Assembly: GCA_964597775.1 (NCBI GenBank)
Contig: CAZQZJ010000003.1
Coordinates: 1 to 59,311 of the forward strand
Reading direction: 5' to 3'
DNA: 59,311 bases
From: an uncultured Methanosarcinales archaeon
Lineage (GTDB): Archaea; Nanobdellota; Nanobdellia; Woesearchaeales; JAGWAF01
Part shown: piece by piece, positions 3,665 through 57,932 of the stretch
Layout of the letters: every line of letters begins with the position of its first letter
Numbering within the stretch: the stretch's first letter is position 1
Position numbers and translations under genes: made by a program
The notes under the pieces: generated by a model
The model's database searches: none
What the model saw: the letters and a program-made list of their open reading frames with translations, nothing else
What the model was told of the DNA's origin: nothing

Positions 3665-3756
3665 GCAACCAGAACACCTTGCACAGTATTTATAAGTTAC
3701 GGGAAAATTAAACTGTGATTACTTTGTCCAAAAAATGACATTATCCATTTTTTTGG

Positions 3757-3884
3757 GGGGTTGTGGTCTAGCTTGGTATGATTCACGGATGGGGTCCGCG
3801 AGATCGGGTGCACCCAAGGTCTTCTACCTTGTGGCACACAAACTCACGAAGTGAGTTTGTTGGGTTCAAATCCTCCCAACCCCA
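3757..3884 (+). tRNA. tRNA-Pro(GGG) with a 54-nt insertion in the T-stem (50/51 or 51/52)
   Basis: Acceptor GGGGTTG/CAACCCC+A73, D-arm GTCT-AGCTTGGTA-TGAT, anticodon arm CACGG-AT-GGG-GT-CCGCG, GGTTCAAATCC T-arm. Removing 3808-3861 gives a 74-nt cloverleaf. Confidence 0.85.
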
Positions 3885-4167
3885 TTTTGAAGGATTTGGA
3901 CCGTCTGGGCTTTGTGGAACGGTTTATAGTCGATAAAGTGAGAAAGAGCGTCATGATGATCGGATTTCAGATTGCGGCCAAATGAGTGTTCTGTCATGGT
4001 TGTTGACCGGACGCGACTTCTCCGCGCTGTTCGGTTGATTCTCTGTTGACTTTTATCGTCGTTGAACTACATACATGTTCCCCTGCCAAACAGGATTTGG
4101 ACCGTTTTCTAGAAGGTTGACATAACCGAAGGCAAATAGGGAAAATTCTCACCCATAAAAATCCAAA

Positions 4168-4593
4168 TCACTTTTTAAGCACGCCCTCAACTGCTTTGAT
4201 AAAATCTTCCGCAGTCTCAATTACATTCTTGGCCTCACCGTAATCTATCCTGATCGGATCAAGACCATAATTGATGGCATGCCTATCAAGGCGAAGTGTA
4301 TTGAGCTCATTCAAAAACCTCAATTCAAGGCGATCGGCATATTGCTCCTTGACATACACGAACAGCGCAAAATGGCTCTTCTCAACATAACCGTCCCGGA
4401 ACAACAAAGACCTCGCGGCATGAAACATGCTTGCGTAGGCATTTGCGACTGCTTCCTCAGGGACTATCTTCAGGACCTTTTTAGCCACCTCAATCTTATG
4501 CCATGCCCTCTCGATCGATTTTGCCGCCTTCTCATTATCCGGGACGTCCCGCCTGAGAAGACCCTTTGCAACACATTGTTTGATGTCCATCAT
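4168..4593 (-). CDS. HEPN domain protein (putative toxin)
   Basis: AYASMFHAARSLL...KSH and Rx4HxxxY-like LRLDRHAINY; overlaps the upstream MNT gene. Confidence 0.85.
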   Translation of the reverse strand: MMDIKQCVAKGLLRRDVPDNEKAAKSIERAWHKIEVAKKVLKIVPEEAVANAYASMFHAARSLLFRDGYVEKSHFALFVYVKEQYADRLELRFLNELNTLRLDRHAINYGLDPIRIDYGEAKNVIETAEDFIKAVEGVLKK

Positions 4594-5138
4594 CTCACCA
4601 CAGGAATCTCTCCATGAATCGCGATGCCTCCAATGACCACGTTATCATAGAACGCCTTGTCGTCACGGGCCTTGACCTTCCATTGCGAAGGCGTGAATTG
4701 CATCCATGACACCTCACGATCCAAGACTTTCTCCGATTTTAGCCCGTTGAAGGAAACATTTGACCGGGAGATAATCACGATATCCACATCGCTGTCGGGC
4801 ATATCTGTTCCGCGCGCCACCGAGCCGAACAAAATGACTGACAATATCGCCGGGTTCTTTTTGAGGAGCTCCTCGATCAAACCAACCTCATGGATTCGCC
4901 CAAGAGACAGGGACGCTTTAAGATGCCGAACCAGAACATTATCTCTGTCCAGTTCACACAGGATCATCCTTCCAAGGGGCGTTCGCTTCACCAACCGATA
5001 ATCAGCCAAATAGTCGACTACGCGCTTAGCCGACGTGAGCCCTACACCCGCTCGCTTAGCTATCACGGTCATCGATTCGGGATGCTTTGTTTGCGACATG
5101 CTTTCAAAAACACGGAAAAGGGCATAAGATCGGATCAT
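4590..5138 (-). CDS. wHTH plus minimal nucleotidyltransferase (MNT) antitoxin
   Basis: SVILFGSVARG...DSDVDIVII MNT motif and N-terminal HTH (IAKRAGVGLTSAKRVV); ATG at 5138 with an SD-like GGTGTGGG. Confidence 0.88.
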   Translation of the reverse strand: MIRSYALFRVFESMSQTKHPESMTVIAKRAGVGLTSAKRVVDYLADYRLVKRTPLGRMILCELDRDNVLVRHLKASLSLGRIHEVGLIEELLKKNPAILSVILFGSVARGTDMPDSDVDIVIISRSNVSFNGLKSEKVLDREVSWMQFTPSQWKVKARDDKAFYDNVVIGGIAIHGEIPVVR

Positions 5139-5183
5139 ACACCCACACCAATGATCCTTCCTTAAATGGTTTTCCATTATTCA

Positions 5184-29292: not shown

Positions 29293-29436
29293 ATGTTAGC
29301 TTTCCTTTCTAAATTTATTGAGTTTGAGTACGTATTAAGCAGGGGTCAGTAGTCTGGTCAGTTGGTAGAGGGCATTCTTGCAGGACTTATCACCATTGGA
29401 CTAATCCTTATCAAACTGATTCATCGTACTTGTTAA
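29293..29436 (+). pseudogene. Possible small membrane-protein pseudogene
   Basis: MLAFLSKFIEFEYVLSRGQ*SGQLVEGILAGLITIGLILIKLIHRTC*: one internal TAG (29350-29352), a TM-like C-terminus, and a stop supplied by the adjacent repeat. Confidence 0.35.
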
Positions 29437-29685
29437 GACCCTATCTGTTGCAGAGGCGCTGACTTGTGTTTGCATTCGCAAACACACAACGCCGCTCGCA
29501 CCTCACAGAACTATTCAAAGAAACCCTCCTATCTGGAACCTCCTCGGGTTTGCGTAGAACTTCATAATAGTGCTCGCATCCTGGCACAATCGAACCCTTC
29601 GGCTTTCGCTGTGCACAAGGTCGAAATGCGACCTTGTTGCGTTCCACGCCAGCGCCTCTGCATAACACCTGGCTTAACAAGTACG
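29425..29685. mobile_element. 261-bp non-autonomous REPIN/MITE-like element built from two inverted module-B ends
   Basis: 13-bp terminal IR CGTACTTGTTAAG/CTTAACAAGTACG, subterminal IR TGCAGAGGCGCTG/CAGCGCCTCTGCA, flanking direct repeat ATTCAT (29419-29424, 29686-29691), and a GC-rich multi-hairpin core. Confidence 0.8.
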
Positions 29686-29747: not shown

Positions 29748-29820
29748 AGGCCTGTGGTCTAGCGGCTATGACGCCACCTTCACATGGTGGAGGTCAAGGG
29801 TTCAAATCCCTTCAGGCCTA
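29748..29820 (+). tRNA. tRNA-Val(CAC)
   Basis: AGGCCTG/CAGGCCT+A73, anticodon arm CCACC-TT-CAC-AT-GGTGG, T-arm AAGGG-TTCAAAT-CCCTT. Confidence 0.95.
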
Positions 29821-32296: not shown

Positions 32297-33370
32297 TTAT
32301 AGTTTACACAAACTAATTGGCTTTCTTGTATCATCATAAAAACCAGATCTGCATTTGAGTTCAGGCTTACAATCAAAATCAGTGTTGCAACCAATGTTCT
32401 CTGATCTTGCTCTTTTTGGAGAACAAACCTTTGATTTATACAAATCATGGTATAAACAATCTATTTGCAAAGATTCTTTTTTCCCACCCCTTCCTAATAT
32501 TTCTTGAGCACACTCATCCTTTTTTTTACAGGATTCATTTAATCCACTAAACTCTGGTAAACAAATCCAAATTGGCTTATTTGTCTCATCATAAAAACCA
32601 GGCTTACAAACTAAAGACACAGCACAATCACTATTGGAGTTACATATAACATTCTTAGGCCGAGATGTCATAACTTGGCATACCTTTGATTTATAATCCT
32701 CATGGTACAAACATTTCAAACTAGGATCACACTCCACATTTCCACCACATACCTCATTTAACAATGCAAACTCTGGTTTGCATAACCCAATGGGCTTATT
32801 GGTCTCATCATAAAAACCAGACTTGCAGACTAAAGACACAGTGCAATCACTATTAGAATTACAGATAACATTGTTTAGACGCTTATTTCCAAAGGTACAA
32901 ATCTTGGTCTTAAAATCATCATGATATAAACAATCTGAGGATACAATCTTATTATCCTTATCAAGAAGCCTACACTCACTGCTTTTTATACAGCTTTGAT
33001 TAAAACCCTTAAACTCTGGCTGACATAAACTAATTTTCTTACCTTGATTGTCTCTAAATCCTTTAATACACCCAAGTCCTAACTGACAGTCACTATTTAA
33101 CGAGCATTCTAGACCAGAAACCCTATTATGCTTTGGAATACAAACGTTTCCTTGCTTATCTGAACTATACCCACATTCTGTAGATTCACACTCACTATCA
33201 CTCTGACAAGGCACTTCTAATGCATTATAAGAAGCTCTTAGATCGACATCACTCACTTCAAAACCAGTAATAGAAGTATGATATTTGGAAACTGTAAACA
33301 TAGAAAAGATACTGACAACGAGTACAAAAAATAATATAATAAGCTCTGAATGACTATTCATTACAATCAC
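32297..33370 (-). CDS. Membrane-anchored or secreted Cys-rich repeat protein
   Basis: N-terminal TM plus ITG motif, about 9 C-x5-C-x5-C-type units, and a 219-nt internal tandem repeat (32583 versus 32802). Confidence 0.85.
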   Translation of the reverse strand: MIVMNSHSELIILFFVLVVSIFSMFTVSKYHTSITGFEVSDVDLRASYNALEVPCQSDSECESTECGYSSDKQGNVCIPKHNRVSGLECSLNSDCQLGLGCIKGFRDNQGKKISLCQPEFKGFNQSCIKSSECRLLDKDNKIVSSDCLYHDDFKTKICTFGNKRLNNVICNSNSDCTVSLVCKSGFYDETNKPIGLCKPEFALLNEVCGGNVECDPSLKCLYHEDYKSKVCQVMTSRPKNVICNSNSDCAVSLVCKPGFYDETNKPIWICLPEFSGLNESCKKKDECAQEILGRGGKKESLQIDCLYHDLYKSKVCSPKRARSENIGCNTDFDCKPELKCRSGFYDDTRKPISLCKL

Positions 33371-33801
33371 CTTTTTTTATACACTTAATATTATTTGTTT
33401 ATATATCTTTCTTGATAAGAGATGCTAAACAAAATTCAAGAAACAACATGAGACATATCTTTACTGGTACTTGTTTAGCTCCTCTTAGAAGACAGGAGCG
33501 CTGGCTTATAAAATTGTAGTACGAATACCCACAGATTCAACAAAAATTTAAGTTTACACCCTTGTATAACAATTGATTCTATTTCTGTTTTGTTATTAGG
33601 CAATTCATTCAATAAATTATTGGAGAAACCACAAATAAATATTTCGCATTCTATAACAATATCTAGTATTAAGCGCAATAAAACTACGCTTAATGCATGT
33701 TCTGCGTAATTGAGAATTCGGCGCACGCATACCTTTACTATATTGAATCCATCAGGTTTAAATCGCAAAACTTATTTAGTAGCTTCATTAACCTATTTAC
33801 T

Positions 33802-34566
33802 ATGACTGAATTTATTGGAATTAGATCGAAATTGTATAAAGAATGTTTGGAAGAATTTCCTCATGCAAGAGACGAAGAAATCAATGCAATAAAAAAATAC
33901 CTTAATCCCAAAAGCAATGAGACTATTCTTGAAGTTGGCGCAGGAAGCGGTCTTCTTTCTGAAGTTTTATCTGAAGTCTTAAAGAATGGAAAATTAATCG
34001 TATCAGATCCTTCAGCAGAGCAACTTCAAGCAATAAAGAACAAACCCAACATCCAAATCGTTAATGAAAGTGTCGATAATTTAAGTTTGGAAGATAAAAC
34101 CATTGATGCTGTTTGTTCTTTGGGAGCGATGCATCATTGCTTCAATAAAACAAAAGCTTTCCAGAATTTTGCTCGCATACTAAAGCCAGATGGTAGACTA
34201 GTTATCGCTGATGTTTTTAATGGTTCATCATTAGCCAAACATTTTGATGTTCAAGTCGCAAAATATTGCATTACTGGACACGAAGTTGCGTTTTGGACAG
34301 ATGAATTTGCTGAAAGCCTTTGTTTTTTGGCTGGATTTGAAAAACCCAAAATTTCCCAGTTAAACATTCGTTGGAAATTTAGTTCAAAAGAAGATGTCGG
34401 AATTTTTTTATATAAAATTCATGCAATGACAAAAACTACGCCAGCAGAGTGTTTGAGAGGTGCAGAAGAAATTCTTGGTATAATCAAAAAAGACAACCAG
34501 TATTATTTGGGCTGGCCATTAAAAGTTATTATAACTAAAAAGATTAATCCCAAACCTTCTTTATAG
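33802..34566 (+). CDS. Class I SAM-dependent methyltransferase
   Basis: ILEVGAGSG, DAVCSLGAMHH and RILKPDGRLVIAD; ATG at 33802. Confidence 0.9.
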   Translation: MTEFIGIRSKLYKECLEEFPHARDEEINAIKKYLNPKSNETILEVGAGSGLLSEVLSEVLKNGKLIVSDPSAEQLQAIKNKPNIQIVNESVDNLSLEDKTIDAVCSLGAMHHCFNKTKAFQNFARILKPDGRLVIADVFNGSSLAKHFDVQVAKYCITGHEVAFWTDEFAESLCFLAGFEKPKISQLNIRWKFSSKEDVGIFLYKIHAMTKTTPAECLRGAEEILGIIKKDNQYYLGWPLKVIITKKINPKPSL

Positions 34567-34614
34567 AGAAATAAACGAAACCTTTATAAATAGTGTTACT
34601 ACTAATAAGTTAAT

Positions 34615-35319
34615 ATGAAAGCATTAGTTATCGGCGGGACCAGAGGCTTTGGAAAAGAAATTTCAGACCAACTTTTGGATAAAGGATACAATTTAATTAC
34701 TGTCAGTCGTTCAACTTCTGGTTACAAAAACTACCCTCATTATTCATGTGATGTAGGAGATTTGGATTCTTGGCAGAAAACCCTACAACAAATAAAATCC
34801 GAGCATAAAAACTTAGATTTTTTAGCTTGTGTTGCTGGATTTACAAAAGCAAGATTTTCTAAAGATTTGACCATTGATGATTGGAATCAAACTCTTTCAA
34901 GAAATGTTATTTATGTCGCCTTAGCACTTCAAGAATTATCTGAGTTGCTTCATACTTCCAATCATCCAAGAGTATTAACAGTTGGTAGCCAATGGTCGTA
35001 TAAAATAGGTTGCGATGAACTTGTTCCATACACAGTCGCTAAACATGCCTTAAGAACACTAACAGAAGATTTCGCTCAAAGAAATTCAAGAATCCAAATC
35101 AATCATTATTGTGCGCCAACAATGGATACGCCAGGATATTGGGAAGTAAGAGAATCATTTCAAAATATCGGGCAAGAATCTACAATAAAGAGTTTTGTGC
35201 CTGATAGATTAACAGATCCAAAAGTTGTAGCAAAATCAATCATAGACAAAACATTGGAAACCGACGCCTCTGGTTCCACTTTTGTTATTAAACCTGATGG
35301 ATTGATTGAAAAACTATAA
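34615..35319 (+). CDS. Short-chain dehydrogenase/reductase
   Basis: ALVIGGTRGFGK, YTVAK (YxxxK) and CAPTMDT; TATA-like TTTATAAAT near 34583. Confidence 0.9.
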   Translation: MKALVIGGTRGFGKEISDQLLDKGYNLITVSRSTSGYKNYPHYSCDVGDLDSWQKTLQQIKSEHKNLDFLACVAGFTKARFSKDLTIDDWNQTLSRNVIYVALALQELSELLHTSNHPRVLTVGSQWSYKIGCDELVPYTVAKHALRTLTEDFAQRNSRIQINHYCAPTMDTPGYWEVRESFQNIGQESTIKSFVPDRLTDPKVVAKSIIDKTLETDASGSTFVIKPDGLIEKL

Positions 35320-35390
35320 GCGCCGAATTCTCAACTTGCTCCGCTTCGCTACGCACCCCGCTGCGCTCTCCTCCTTTCAGTCGTCGGGAC

Positions 35391-35486
35391 GCCTAACAAG
35401 GATTATGAGGAAAATGACTCGGTTCGCCATTTTCCCAAATTGCCTACGCTTCGCTTCGGCAACTTCTCTTAATCGCGATGTTATAT
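35391..35486 (+). other. Integron attC-like recombination site
   Basis: R'' GCCTAAC (RYYYAAC) to R' GTTATAT; L boxes GATTATGAG/CTCTTAATC; inner hairpins including GCTTCGC motifs. Confidence 0.7.
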
Positions 35487-35507
35487 TCAATTCGCAAGCT
35501 TGCCTTG

Positions 35508-35765
35508 TTAATAGACTCGTTCTCTAATATCAATTGCAAAGATGATAATGTGATGATTATCATTATCTACTCTGTATAGCACACGGTAATCTCCAATACG
35601 TATTCTGAACACACCATGCCTACCAACAATTGCCTTGGCATCATGAGGAACCGGTTGATCTTGGAGAAGTGTTTCTGTCTTGTCTACAATCCTTTGTGCA
35701 ATATGTTTATCTGCTTTCTTTAGAAATTTCTGAGGTTGAATATCATATTGAATTCCAAATTTCAT
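35508..35765 (-). CDS. relE: RelE/ParE-family toxin
   Basis: KFLKK...FRIRIGDYRVLYRVD...IDIRERVY. Confidence 0.9.
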   Translation of the reverse strand: MKFGIQYDIQPQKFLKKADKHIAQRIVDKTETLLQDQPVPHDAKAIVGRHGVFRIRIGDYRVLYRVDNDNHHIIIFAIDIRERVY

Positions 35766-35947
35766 ATCCCAAACTCATTCCTCAGTGATTCGCTGGAGAC
35801 AAGAAGATTTTCTTTTTCGTGTTTATAGCTTGCATCAAGTAATTCGCTTTCTTCTGCTGCCAAGAACATATCCCTGTCTGGTATCTCTTCTCTTATTGTT
35901 TTTAGTTCTCTTCTTATAAGTACTAATTCCTGTTTGATATCTTCCAT
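35762..35947 (-). CDS. Cognate antitoxin (acidic, about 61 aa)
   Basis: Small acidic ORF overlapping the toxin start by 4 nt; ATG at 35947 or 35959. Confidence 0.8.
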   Translation of the reverse strand: MEDIKQELVLIRRELKTIREEIPDRDMFLAAEESELLDASYKHEKENLLVSSESLRNEFGI

Positions 35948-36611
35948 TTCGGTGCCCATACAGTTTGTAACAACTCCAGCTTTAAAAACATATCGGCAAG
36001 CTTGTGAACTCTTCGCCAATTTTTGTTTCACAAAAACCATTGTACTTTGACTCGGTCACTTCGTGACGAATATAACCGGAGAAGCCGTCCCACAATTCTT
36101 CCCTAATAACCCCATTTCCAAAAAAAAAGATAATTTAGGGGAATTTAGCAGTATTTCGTCTGCATCATTCTCCGTAATACATGAGAATCCTTTTCCTATC
36201 TGTTCCTGAATATATCTTTTATGCCAAATTGTTAATTCTCATCTCTTGGCATTGCCCCTCAATAATTGATTTCAAAACTTCTTTAAATTAAATGGTTTGC
36301 GTGAGAAAATTGGAAACACAGCTTCCAAATTCTTGGAACAGAGTTCCAAGAAACCCAGATTTAGCTGGATTTATTTTAGGAGTATGTCATTCTTGCTTGT
36401 GCAAAAATGGGACGTCGCTCGCACTTATCTTTATTGTATTATCTTTTTCTTCAGACGATCTTGCAGTGTCATCTGACGCAATTTCAGATTATGCTCTAAA
36501 TGATTAATAATCACATTTGTATTTAGTGTACGAAGATCAAGCAGATCACCAGCAAGCCTAAACTCTGGCTTTAACCTTTGTTCTTGTGACTTCACTTTTA
36601 ATCTGTTCATT

Positions 36612-57776: not shown

Positions 57777-57932
57777 GGGGCTGTAGTATAACTTGGCTAG
57801 AATAGGTGGCTCCAGTCATGGAGCGATGAGCTGCAGTAATCTGTAGCAATGAAATAAACCTATGGTCTGTTGAAGCCTTTGCTTCAAGGAAGAGACCACC
57901 GGATCAGGGTTCAAATCCCTGCAGCCCCACCA
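57777..57932 (+). tRNA. tRNA-Trp(CCA) with a canonical 37/38 intron (57816-57894) and encoded CCA
   Basis: GGGGCTG/CAGCCCC-A-CCA; anticodon stem GGTGG/CCACC; BHB with central helix CTCC/GAAG (one mismatch) and intron stem CATGGAGC/GCTTCAAG; TTTATAAA about 30 nt upstream. Confidence 0.95.
57816..57894 (+). ncRNA. Intron-encoded box C/D-like guide RNA (putative Cm34/Cm39)
   Basis: TGGAGC-g-ATGA and TGGTCT-g-TTGA: antisense elements place C34 and C39 opposite the fifth nt upstream of D-like boxes. Confidence 0.55.

Follow-up and report, generated by a model that had tools for sequence, protein, structure and literature searches.

Integrons have been reported in Archaea, and Woesearchaeales and Pacearchaeales are among the groups for which clusters of attC sites lacking integron-integrases (CALINs) have been described (Ghaly et al., 2022; PMC9668308). 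The toxin-antitoxin (TA) cassettes of sedentary chromosomal integrons carry their own promoter, are often inversely oriented and are thought to stabilise arrays (PMC13108822; citations in PMC9668308). Here, a locus with a similar arrangement is described in an archaeal contig of 59 kb (CAZQZJ010000003.1, positions 1 to 59,311 of the forward strand; hereafter the window), in which a small TA pair lies between complementary 9-nt ends, directly beside a large GC-rich element that can fold. The original prediction for this locus was a solitary archaeal integron-type TA cassette surviving as a CALIN-like relic. Comparison with related loci and metagenome contigs (labelled L006 to L130) indicates that the region is very probably a cassette relic of a conserved element family. 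It is also likely that the segment 33649-36076 represents an array of two cassettes, now decayed, from a gene-cassette system that resembles integrons.

The segment holds two cassettes (A and B) and three recombination-type sites (0, 1 and 2), with a further candidate site beyond them. The two core boxes of a site are called R'' and R'. The features are as follows.

33649 to 33709, plus strand: site 0, minimal and degenerate, marking where cassette A starts; identified by inspection of the sequence.
33700 to 35480, plus strand: cassette A, from G|TTCTGCGT (G at 33699) onward, with a methyltransferase and a short-chain dehydrogenase/reductase (SDR); its own site is site 1.
33802 to 34566, plus strand: S-adenosylmethionine-dependent methyltransferase (Pfam).
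34615 to 35319, plus strand: SDR oxidoreductase (Pfam).
35320 to 35492, plus strand: site 1, cassette A's own and the sole complete site in the window; covariance model and nhmmer.
35481 to 36006, plus strand: cassette B body, starting G|TTATATTC (G at 35480), with outer repeat arms that enclose minus-strand cargo.
35508 to 35765, minus strand: ParE/RelE-family toxin gene, 85 amino acids; Pfam PF05016, E 7e-11, 43 bits (cut-off 23).
35762 to 35959, minus strand: antitoxin gene, 65 amino acids, upstream of the toxin gene and overlapping its start by 4 nt.
35995 to 36076, plus strand: site 2, cassette B's own, truncated; positional rules and R'' match.
36278 to 36372, plus strand: candidate heavily decayed site; covariance model 13.9 bits, E ~1 for the whole window.

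The cassettes of this family share one layout: G|TTAnnnnn, two bases, a left outer arm, the cargo, a right outer arm, a 5' domain of 60-90 nt and R'' (nnnnnTAAC). Two rules underlie this layout, with statistics drawn from 21 array cassettes of related loci. The 9-mer GTTAnnnnn at the start of a cassette complements the cassette's own downstream R'' at a mean of 8.57 of 9 positions and perfectly in 15 of the 21, against backgrounds of 6.12 of 9 for the adjacent site and 6.13 of 9 for all-against-all comparison. The outer inverted repeat has a mean of 12.9 nt of exact match (6.7 in controls); its left arm stands at offset 11 and its right arm 57-90 nt upstream of R'', so that the arms bracket the 5' domain. 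Both rules are what would be expected if cassettes pass through a circular intermediate and cross over at G|TT, and both hold for both cassettes of the window.

The start of cassette B is complementary to the cassette's own R'' at 9 of 9 positions: the 9-mer GTTATATTC at 35480-35488 has its exact reverse complement, GAATATAAC, at 36068-36076, just as had been noticed, and this pair is now seen to be the cassette start and the R'' of the cassette's own truncated site. Neither 9-mer occurs elsewhere in the 59 kb (chance expectation 0.81). By itself the 9-nt inverted repeat is weak, ranking 23rd of 51 among inverted repeats in 1.1 kb, and it becomes significant because start/R'' complementarity is the rule in related arrays. 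The outer inverted repeat of cassette B is 14 nt long (TTCGCAAGCTTGCC at 35491-35504 and GGCAAGCTTGTGAA at 35995-36008), and its left arm begins exactly 11 nt after the G of GTTA, the offset of the family. A cassette in L112 carries the identical GTTATATTC/GAATATAAC pair around different cargo; the left ends of the two cassettes are identical over 32 nt and their right ends 90% identical over 21 nt. The proposals that the TA pair sits in a cassette starting G|TTATATTC and that its genes, both on the minus strand, are inverted relative to the cassette are supported. The probability that a 9/9 R'' within 2.5 kb and a 14-nt repeat at offset 11 and at the right distance would arise together by chance is estimated at ~1e-7.

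The site downstream of the TA pair, site 2, was correctly predicted to be truncated. It keeps the outer repeat arm, the start of the 5' domain (AACTCTTCG, 36007-36015), a hairpin TTTTTGT/ACAAAAA (36020-36036), CATTGTACT at 36038-36046 (a degraded form of the family motif CGTTGCACT), CTCGG and the hairpin GTCAC-TTC-GTGAC at 36055-36067. This last hairpin, which had also been pointed out before, lies immediately 5' of GAATATAAC and corresponds to the second hairpin of the 5' domain of site 2. The site ends just after R'' GAATATAAC (36068-36076), with the Y-shaped domain and R' missing. Its repeat arm and R'' are 81 nt apart (family range 57-90), and its layout matches that of the 5' domains in array copies.

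The TA cassette does not stand alone. The adjacent cassette A (33700-35480), with the methyltransferase and the SDR, obeys the same end rules: its outer repeat is a perfect 15 nt (TTGAGAATTCGGCGC at 33710-33724 and GCGCCGAATTCTCAA at 35320-35334), with the left arm again at offset 11, and its start complements its own R'' (ACGCCTAAC, 35389-35397) at 7 of 9 positions. The complete site at 35320-35492 belongs to this upstream cassette. Its start had been placed too far downstream, at 35391; the true start is 35320/35331, with a conserved 5' domain, and 35391-35488 is the 3' half only. Site 1 consists of the outer repeat arm, the 5' domain at 35331-35388 (nearly invariant AACTTGCTCCGCTTCGCTACGCACCCCGCTGCGCTCTCC...), R'' at 35389-35397 (which includes GCCTAAC at 35391-35397), the Y-shaped domain at 35398-35479, R' G|TTATATTC at 35480-35488 and a tail ending AATT. 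With 56.7% GC against a mean of 38%, it has a higher GC content than any other 120-nt stretch of the window; the GC-rich stretch is the 170-nt gap that separates the SDR and toxin genes. The 3' half scores 95.5 bits (E 3e-19) with a covariance model of 31 copies, a score that is partly circular because the window copy was among the training copies; nhmmer gives 155 bits. No other strong copy was found when the window was scanned with the covariance model. In the site 1 copy, 3 of the 10 pairs of the main stem (P2) are mismatched.

Site 0, at the start of cassette A, consists of an R''-like TTCTATAAC (33649-33657), a hairpin ATTAAGCG/CGCTTAAT (33668-33675 and 33687-33694), a spacer GCAT and R' G|TTCTGCGT (33699-33707). 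It is supported by the position of the 15-nt outer repeat, which begins exactly 11 nt after its G, and by the 7/9 match of its R' to the complement of the R'' of cassette A. Three sites lie within 2.4 kb, one of them complete and detectable by the model, with no integrase nearby. At 36278-36372, a CCAAATT linker and two hairpins lie in register with the model; this may be a further decayed site, which its position and strand suggest.

The element family is widespread: it was defined by a 22-mer from the GC island (35342-35363), which has exact matches in 19 metagenome contigs. Comparison of their flanks delimits a conserved element of 160-200 nt that ends ~13 nt past a GTTA and whose first base always lies 13-15 nt beyond a same-strand gene's stop codon. 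Ten complete copies were aligned at first and later 31, in all of which TAAC and GTTA are invariant. In the fold of the 3' half, TAAC and GTTA form a 4-bp helix, which is joined by a 10-bp stem and by a three-way junction carrying two hairpins; the linkers CCCAAATT and AACTTC are conserved. In complete sites, the folded DNA that separates the core boxes measures ~82-130 nt. The stem called L runs without interruption for 10 base pairs, has an internal loop of 1 x 3-4 nt and shows no conserved bulge or extrahelical base. The 5' domain is identical over at least 40 nt between contigs from different environments. No match to the element was found by BLAST against plasmids or in two scans of viral collections.

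In the related loci, a profile hidden Markov model (HMM) and the covariance model reveal arrays of same-strand copies at gene-sized spacing. There are nine same-strand sites in 8.2 kb of L116 and three to four each in L114, L118, L119, L112 and L117. Open reading frames (ORFs) in the arrays end 10-60 nt before the next site, and a minority of cassettes carry inverted genes. One 880-nt cassette has been found with 91-94% identity in three unrelated contexts, its left edge lying exactly at |TTATCTG and its right edge at R''. Between L110 and L112, divergence begins directly after GTTAT. These cases show that cassettes have moved from one context to another. Breakpoints at both R' and R'', together with the lack of extrahelical bases, suggest that either strand may be usable.

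The covariation of the stems bears on what is being selected. Across the 31 copies, 95.6% of cells are paired, against 23-45% in controls with slid partners, and there are 218 double-change cells against 69 in shuffles, with four single-side changes. Wobble pairs are no commoner than other mismatches (7 G.T and 7 A.C in 775 cells, 0.9% each), and mismatches are strand-symmetric. Covarying stems that tolerate wobble on neither strand argue for selection as folded DNA rather than RNA, and the pattern makes it probable that the sites act as folded DNA. Alternatively, the element might belong to the transcript of the gene before it, for example as a 3'-untranslated region, a terminator, a processing signal or a ribozyme, and recur after many genes because of its function as RNA. 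Such a structured RNA would account for the constant distance from a same-strand stop codon and for a large, multi-helix, strongly covarying fold. The CTTCGG on the sense strand of many hairpin loops also resembles the stable UUCG tetraloop. On the opposite strand, however, these loops become GAA triloops with a C-G closing pair, which make a hairpin known to be stable in DNA. An RNA would be expected to tolerate G.U pairs and single-side changes, and Rfam gives no match in the element region at the gathering threshold or at E 10. Nor does an RNA predict start/R'' complementarity ~1 kb apart, an outer repeat around the cargo, or one cassette in three contexts with edges at R' and R''; we consider it very improbable. 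Dispersed repeats of the type of miniature inverted-repeat transposable elements or repetitive extragenic palindromes, spread by a transposase or shuffled by homologous recombination only and served by no dedicated site-specific system, are scarcely more probable. They would fit the 5' domains that are identical across environments and break assemblies, the breakpoints that fall at the end of an identical stretch, and the existence of short "empty" forms (L106, L111). Yet array copies are strictly same-strand and gene-spaced, the left cassette edge is exactly |TTA with non-homologous flanks, and cassette-specific complementarity of R'/R'' and outer repeats is a prediction of a circular intermediate and not of transposition. 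No transposase or RAYT was seen among the genes scanned, which cover part of the array ORFs, or among the Pfam hits. That the features are chance properties of AT-rich intergenic DNA around an ordinary chromosomal TA module could be argued from the unremarkable rank of the 9-mer pair and from TA relatives elsewhere that are plain chromosomal modules. This is hardly credible given the estimated joint probability, and the comparison of the family, whose rules the features follow, has already refuted it.

The alternative that is closest to the original prediction is a remnant of a canonical integron, in which the sites would be ordinary attC sites served by an IntI encoded elsewhere in the genome or acting in trans, and the Xer-type genes beside related arrays would be coincidental. 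The core boxes fit RYYYAAC/GTTRRRY, with GCCTAAC at 35391-35397 and GTTATAT at 35480-35486 (one deviation from RRR), and complementary ends with a crossover mapped to G|TT are exactly the logic of integrons. One family copy (L119) is marginal with a model built from validated archaeal attC sites (15 bits, E 0.29), and CALINs without IntI have been reported in metagenome-assembled genomes (MAGs) of Woesearchaeales and Pacearchaeales (PMC9668308, data S1). The small model from which the L119 score comes (six validated archaeal attC sites, without a positive control) leaves the window site unscored at E<=10. The nine validated archaeal attC sites, however, have ~5-nt spacers, where the family has a 1 x 3-4 nt loop, and they share a 5' arm motif, AACAA..T..A.C.GA, that is absent from the family. 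The extrahelical bases that confer bottom-strand selectivity on attC sites are not conserved in the family. Across ~130 kb of array-bearing loci, the only tyrosine recombinases found are without the IntI-specific domain. To our knowledge, canonical attC sites have neither an extra 5' domain nor an outer repeat. A canonical remnant is therefore unlikely, though it deserves more weight than the other alternatives.

The likeness to integrons is nevertheless broad. It includes the inverse core boxes ending AAC and beginning GTT, the complementarity of cassette starts to their own R'', and cargo such as TA pairs, acetyltransferases and methyltransferases. The arrays, too, are alike: their copies share one strand, most of their ORFs lack a promoter, a cassette is inverted now and then, and in relatives one end of the array is flanked by a divergently oriented tyrosine recombinase gene. 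The differences lie in the site of 160-200 nt with its added 5' domain and outer repeat of 10-17 nt, the uninterrupted L stem, the conserved three-way junction at the centre, the breakpoints at R'' as well as R' and the adjacent recombinases. The integron-type attC that had been predicted thus stands as to core boxes and cassette logic and fails as to the uninterrupted stem, the Y centre, the outer repeat and the 5' domain. The data do not establish that the locus belongs to the canonical integrons, from which the sites differ in architecture and probably in recombinase. A CALIN is a cluster of at least two attC sites less than 4 kb apart with no integrase. The CALIN-like relic holds in so far as the locus is a relic without a recombinase in a housekeeping neighbourhood, while only a single site, site 1, is complete and detectable by the model. 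The Vibrio cholerae repeats (VCRs) and the TA cassettes of sedentary chromosomal integrons are also comparable, in that long sites are conserved in sequence within a lineage. VCRs, unlike the family, are recombined by IntIA and have canonical extrahelical bases, whereas the window belongs to an archaeon, holds no integrase and has decayed neighbouring sites.

No tyrosine recombinase was found in the 59-kb window, in agreement with the earlier statement that it lacks intI. Recombinases have been found beside related arrays. In L121, a tyrosine recombinase of 284 amino acids is divergent from an array whose sites score 18, 103, 26 and 16 bits, and the first cassette of this array is a homologue of the window methyltransferase (71% nucleotide identity; also in L115). 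A recombinase in L128/L129, 50% identical to that of L121, directly adjoins sites of 80, 66, 48 and 24 bits and has SmpB, IF3, L35 and L20 on its other flank. A third is encoded in L102, 6.7 kb from a site. The best match of these array recombinases is archaeal XerA (NF040815; PDB 4a8e, 5hxy), and they align to VchIntIA in two pieces, the ~60-amino-acid IntI-specific insertion being absent. Whether the recombinase of the cassette system is a Xer-type enzyme is, in our judgement, evenly balanced. Archaeal XerA-dif, pdif modules and integrative mobile elements exploiting Xer (IMEX) resemble the family in this recombinase. The dif-type sites are short (~28 bp), double-stranded and of 11-6-11 layout. 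The family sites, by contrast, fold into large structures, have core boxes of the integron type and follow cassette logic, and only the minority "empty" forms resemble a short site of two ~11-bp arms with a 6-8 bp spacer.

The host of the window is archaeal and Woesearchaeota-like. The window holds an intron-containing tRNA, Elp3, an STT3/AglB-like protein and a PGF-pre-PGF protein, and the nearest relatives of its MTAP are in Nanoarchaeota and Woesearchaeota MAGs. The recombinases, in turn, have named relatives in Patescibacteria, and TrmD is encoded on one array flank, which indicates that the recombinase-carrying arrays are bacterial (candidate phyla radiation, CPR). "Archaeal" is therefore right for the window and not for the recombinase-bearing arrays, which lie on Patescibacteria-like bacterial contigs. 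Full-text searches of the literature for integrons or attC sites in Patescibacteria or CPR gave nothing relevant. These observations raise the possibility, to which we give slightly less than even weight, of a distinct integron-like class in which large, strand-symmetric folded sites are recombined by a Xer-type enzyme without the IntI domain. This class would be native to arrays of Patescibacteria, and its cassettes would have crossed into the chromosomes of DPANN archaea (the superphylum named for Diapherotrites, Parvarchaeota, Aenigmarchaeota, Nanoarchaeota and Nanohaloarchaeota). The crossing is suggested by the 71% methyltransferase match, the 5' domain identity and an SDR junction in an Aenigmarchaeota MAG. 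Several DPANN phyla contain close relatives of the cassette A SDR. In the Aenigmarchaeota MAG (L130, 863-960), an SDR 82% identical to that of the window, adjoining SUF genes, is followed by the same junction TAAGCGCCGAATTCTCAACTC (20 nt: GCGCCGAATTCTCAACTC) and then by a decayed 5' domain; this looks like a second archaeal relic of the same SDR cassette.

If such a class exists, cassette capture would not be tied to IntI and the canonical attC fold, since ultra-small bacteria would achieve it with an enzyme of the Xer type and a folded site of another build. The CPR share aquifers with DPANN archaea, and the same cassettes lie inside archaeal chromosomes, which would make for a testable route of gene flow between two domains among episymbiotic organisms of groundwater. 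Surveys of integrons keyed to IntI and an attC model may then undercount cassette systems.

Several points weigh against the locus being a decayed array of such a system. Sites 0 and 2 were detected neither by sequence HMMs (3' arm, 5' arm and 5' domain), which find site 1 only, nor by the covariance model, and they rest on positional rules and reading of the sequence by eye. The breakpoints at R'' could reflect homologous recombination in near-identical 5' domains instead of a second cleavage site. The Xer-type recombinase may be the plain chromosome-dimer resolvase of small genomes, standing near arrays for another reason. Finally, TA relatives in other DPANN contigs are solitary and without such sites in the four contexts examined.

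A decayed two-cassette array remains the preferred reading, and the mechanism that it implies can be outlined. In a circular cassette, R'' would pair with the cassette's own first nine bases and the outer arms with each other. The paired ends would close a large folded DNA site with the 10-bp stem and the three-way junction at its centre. Cleavage by a tyrosine recombinase at G|TT, to which the mirror position in R'' is apparently to be added, would insert and excise cassettes. Cassette B would have been inserted in this way at the G|TT of site 1, its TA pair being expressed from a putative TATA-type promoter of its own. With no recombinase in the 59 kb, no Y domain in site 2, a minimal site 0 and three mismatches in site 1, the cassettes of the window are probably now fixed. 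The TA pair, if active at all, may now be an ordinary addiction or stabilising module, and it would exemplify such a module left behind after the decay of an array.

By its genes, the TA pair is a predicted type II module of the ParE/RelE superfamily, in which a small toxin of the ParE/RelE fold is preceded by a small, overlapping antitoxin gene. The toxin scores 26.7 bits with NCBIfam RelE_StbE, slightly below the cut-off of 27.9, and has 40 relatives of 53-72% identity, the two with source names being from Woesearchaeota and Nanoarchaeota. No family match was found for the antitoxin in Pfam or NCBIfam. Alignment with antitoxins of 64-65 amino acids from four related loci places its start at 35959 and not at 36040, which makes it a protein of 65 amino acids instead of a 92-amino-acid ORF. 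A TTTTTAAA box, read from the sequence and conserved in L091, lies at 35981-35988 on the minus strand, 22-29 nt upstream of the antitoxin ATG. Type II ParE/RelE modules of DPANN archaea share the sizes of both proteins, the 4-nt overlap and the gene order; they differ in lying among housekeeping genes without cassette sites, the window copy being the only one framed by cassette ends. The idea that the TA family is generally cassette-borne was rejected, the element being absent from the contexts of the four TA relatives. One complete TA cassette on the minus strand, with its attC downstream of the toxin, was likewise considered and dropped because the top strand of the family is the plus strand of the window and the site follows the upstream gene. 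On a Kuenenbacteria-like contig (L123/L124, 1053-1585), the 3' end of the array-type recombinase gene directly adjoins a toxin of the YafQ/ParE type and its neighbour, a DUF6364 antitoxin.

The window locus is present in three independent assemblies, all from Hainich aquifer well H51, and junctions recovered three times independently are not assembly artefacts. Exact-protein look-ups with the toxin, the SDR and APRT returned the same population only and no allele without the TA pair. Synteny with the nearest MTAP relatives (L008, L009), tried for insertion edges, does not extend past MTAP. Two Logan contigs from independent short-read assemblies (L006, L007) end at a position matching 35367 of the window, inside the nearly invariant 5' domain. 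These ends were at one point considered an insertion polymorphism, an explanation that has been replaced by a multi-copy 5' domain breaking k-mer assemblies. Similarly, of two contigs from the same aquifer well (L102 and L105), one ends and the other starts within the 5' domain. Such breaks indicate that the element is multi-copy in that community.

Some further observations concern the cassettes and their sites. Inside the outer repeat of cassette A lies a second perfect inverted repeat of 16 nt (AATCCATCAGGTTTAA/TTAAACCTGATGGATT, 33746-33761 and 35288-35303), whose right arm TTAAACCTGATGGATT overlaps the last SDR codons; the terminal repeat of cassette A would thus be ~50 nt long, with an internal loop, and reach into coding sequence. 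A cassette of L116 (flipped, 1213-2346) encodes a full-length tyrosyl-tRNA synthetase of the archaeal/eukaryotic type (NF006330, 446 bits) and has a 9/9 match of its start to its own R''; this housekeeping-type enzyme is unusual cargo for a mobile cassette. The short "empty" forms, such as AGATAAC-AAGG-GTTATAT, are a minority, and an example in L106/L111 reads AGATAACAAGG|GTTATATTCAATT. In L107 (flipped, ~1150-1300), two tandem units of ~66 nt are bounded by GCCTAAC-TCA|ATTAGGC and look like gene-less micro-cassettes. In the window, GCGTCTAAACAATGTTATCTGTAATTC at 32857-32888 on the minus strand shares 14 nt exactly with the R' plus tail that cassettes in L115, L118, L104 and L106 carry; the sequence is reminiscent of an "empty" site and lies inside an unannotated ORF of 354 amino acids (32297-33361). 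A cassette partner (R'') for the minus-strand GTTATCTGTAATTC at 32857-32870 was sought and not found.

Elsewhere in the window, an Rfam tRNA match of 153 nt (57777-57929, 38.8 bits) that ARAGORN does not call fits an archaeal intron-containing tRNA. A GC-rich intergenic island (29428-29660, up to 55.8% GC) just upstream of tRNA-Val (29748-29820) has no Rfam match at the gathering threshold and may be an undescribed structured RNA or DNA element. Lastly, a stretch of 1.4 kb (3734-5150) with two minus-strand ORFs (4168-4593 and 4590-5177) has a GC content of 50-56% in a genome of 38% and may be foreign DNA.

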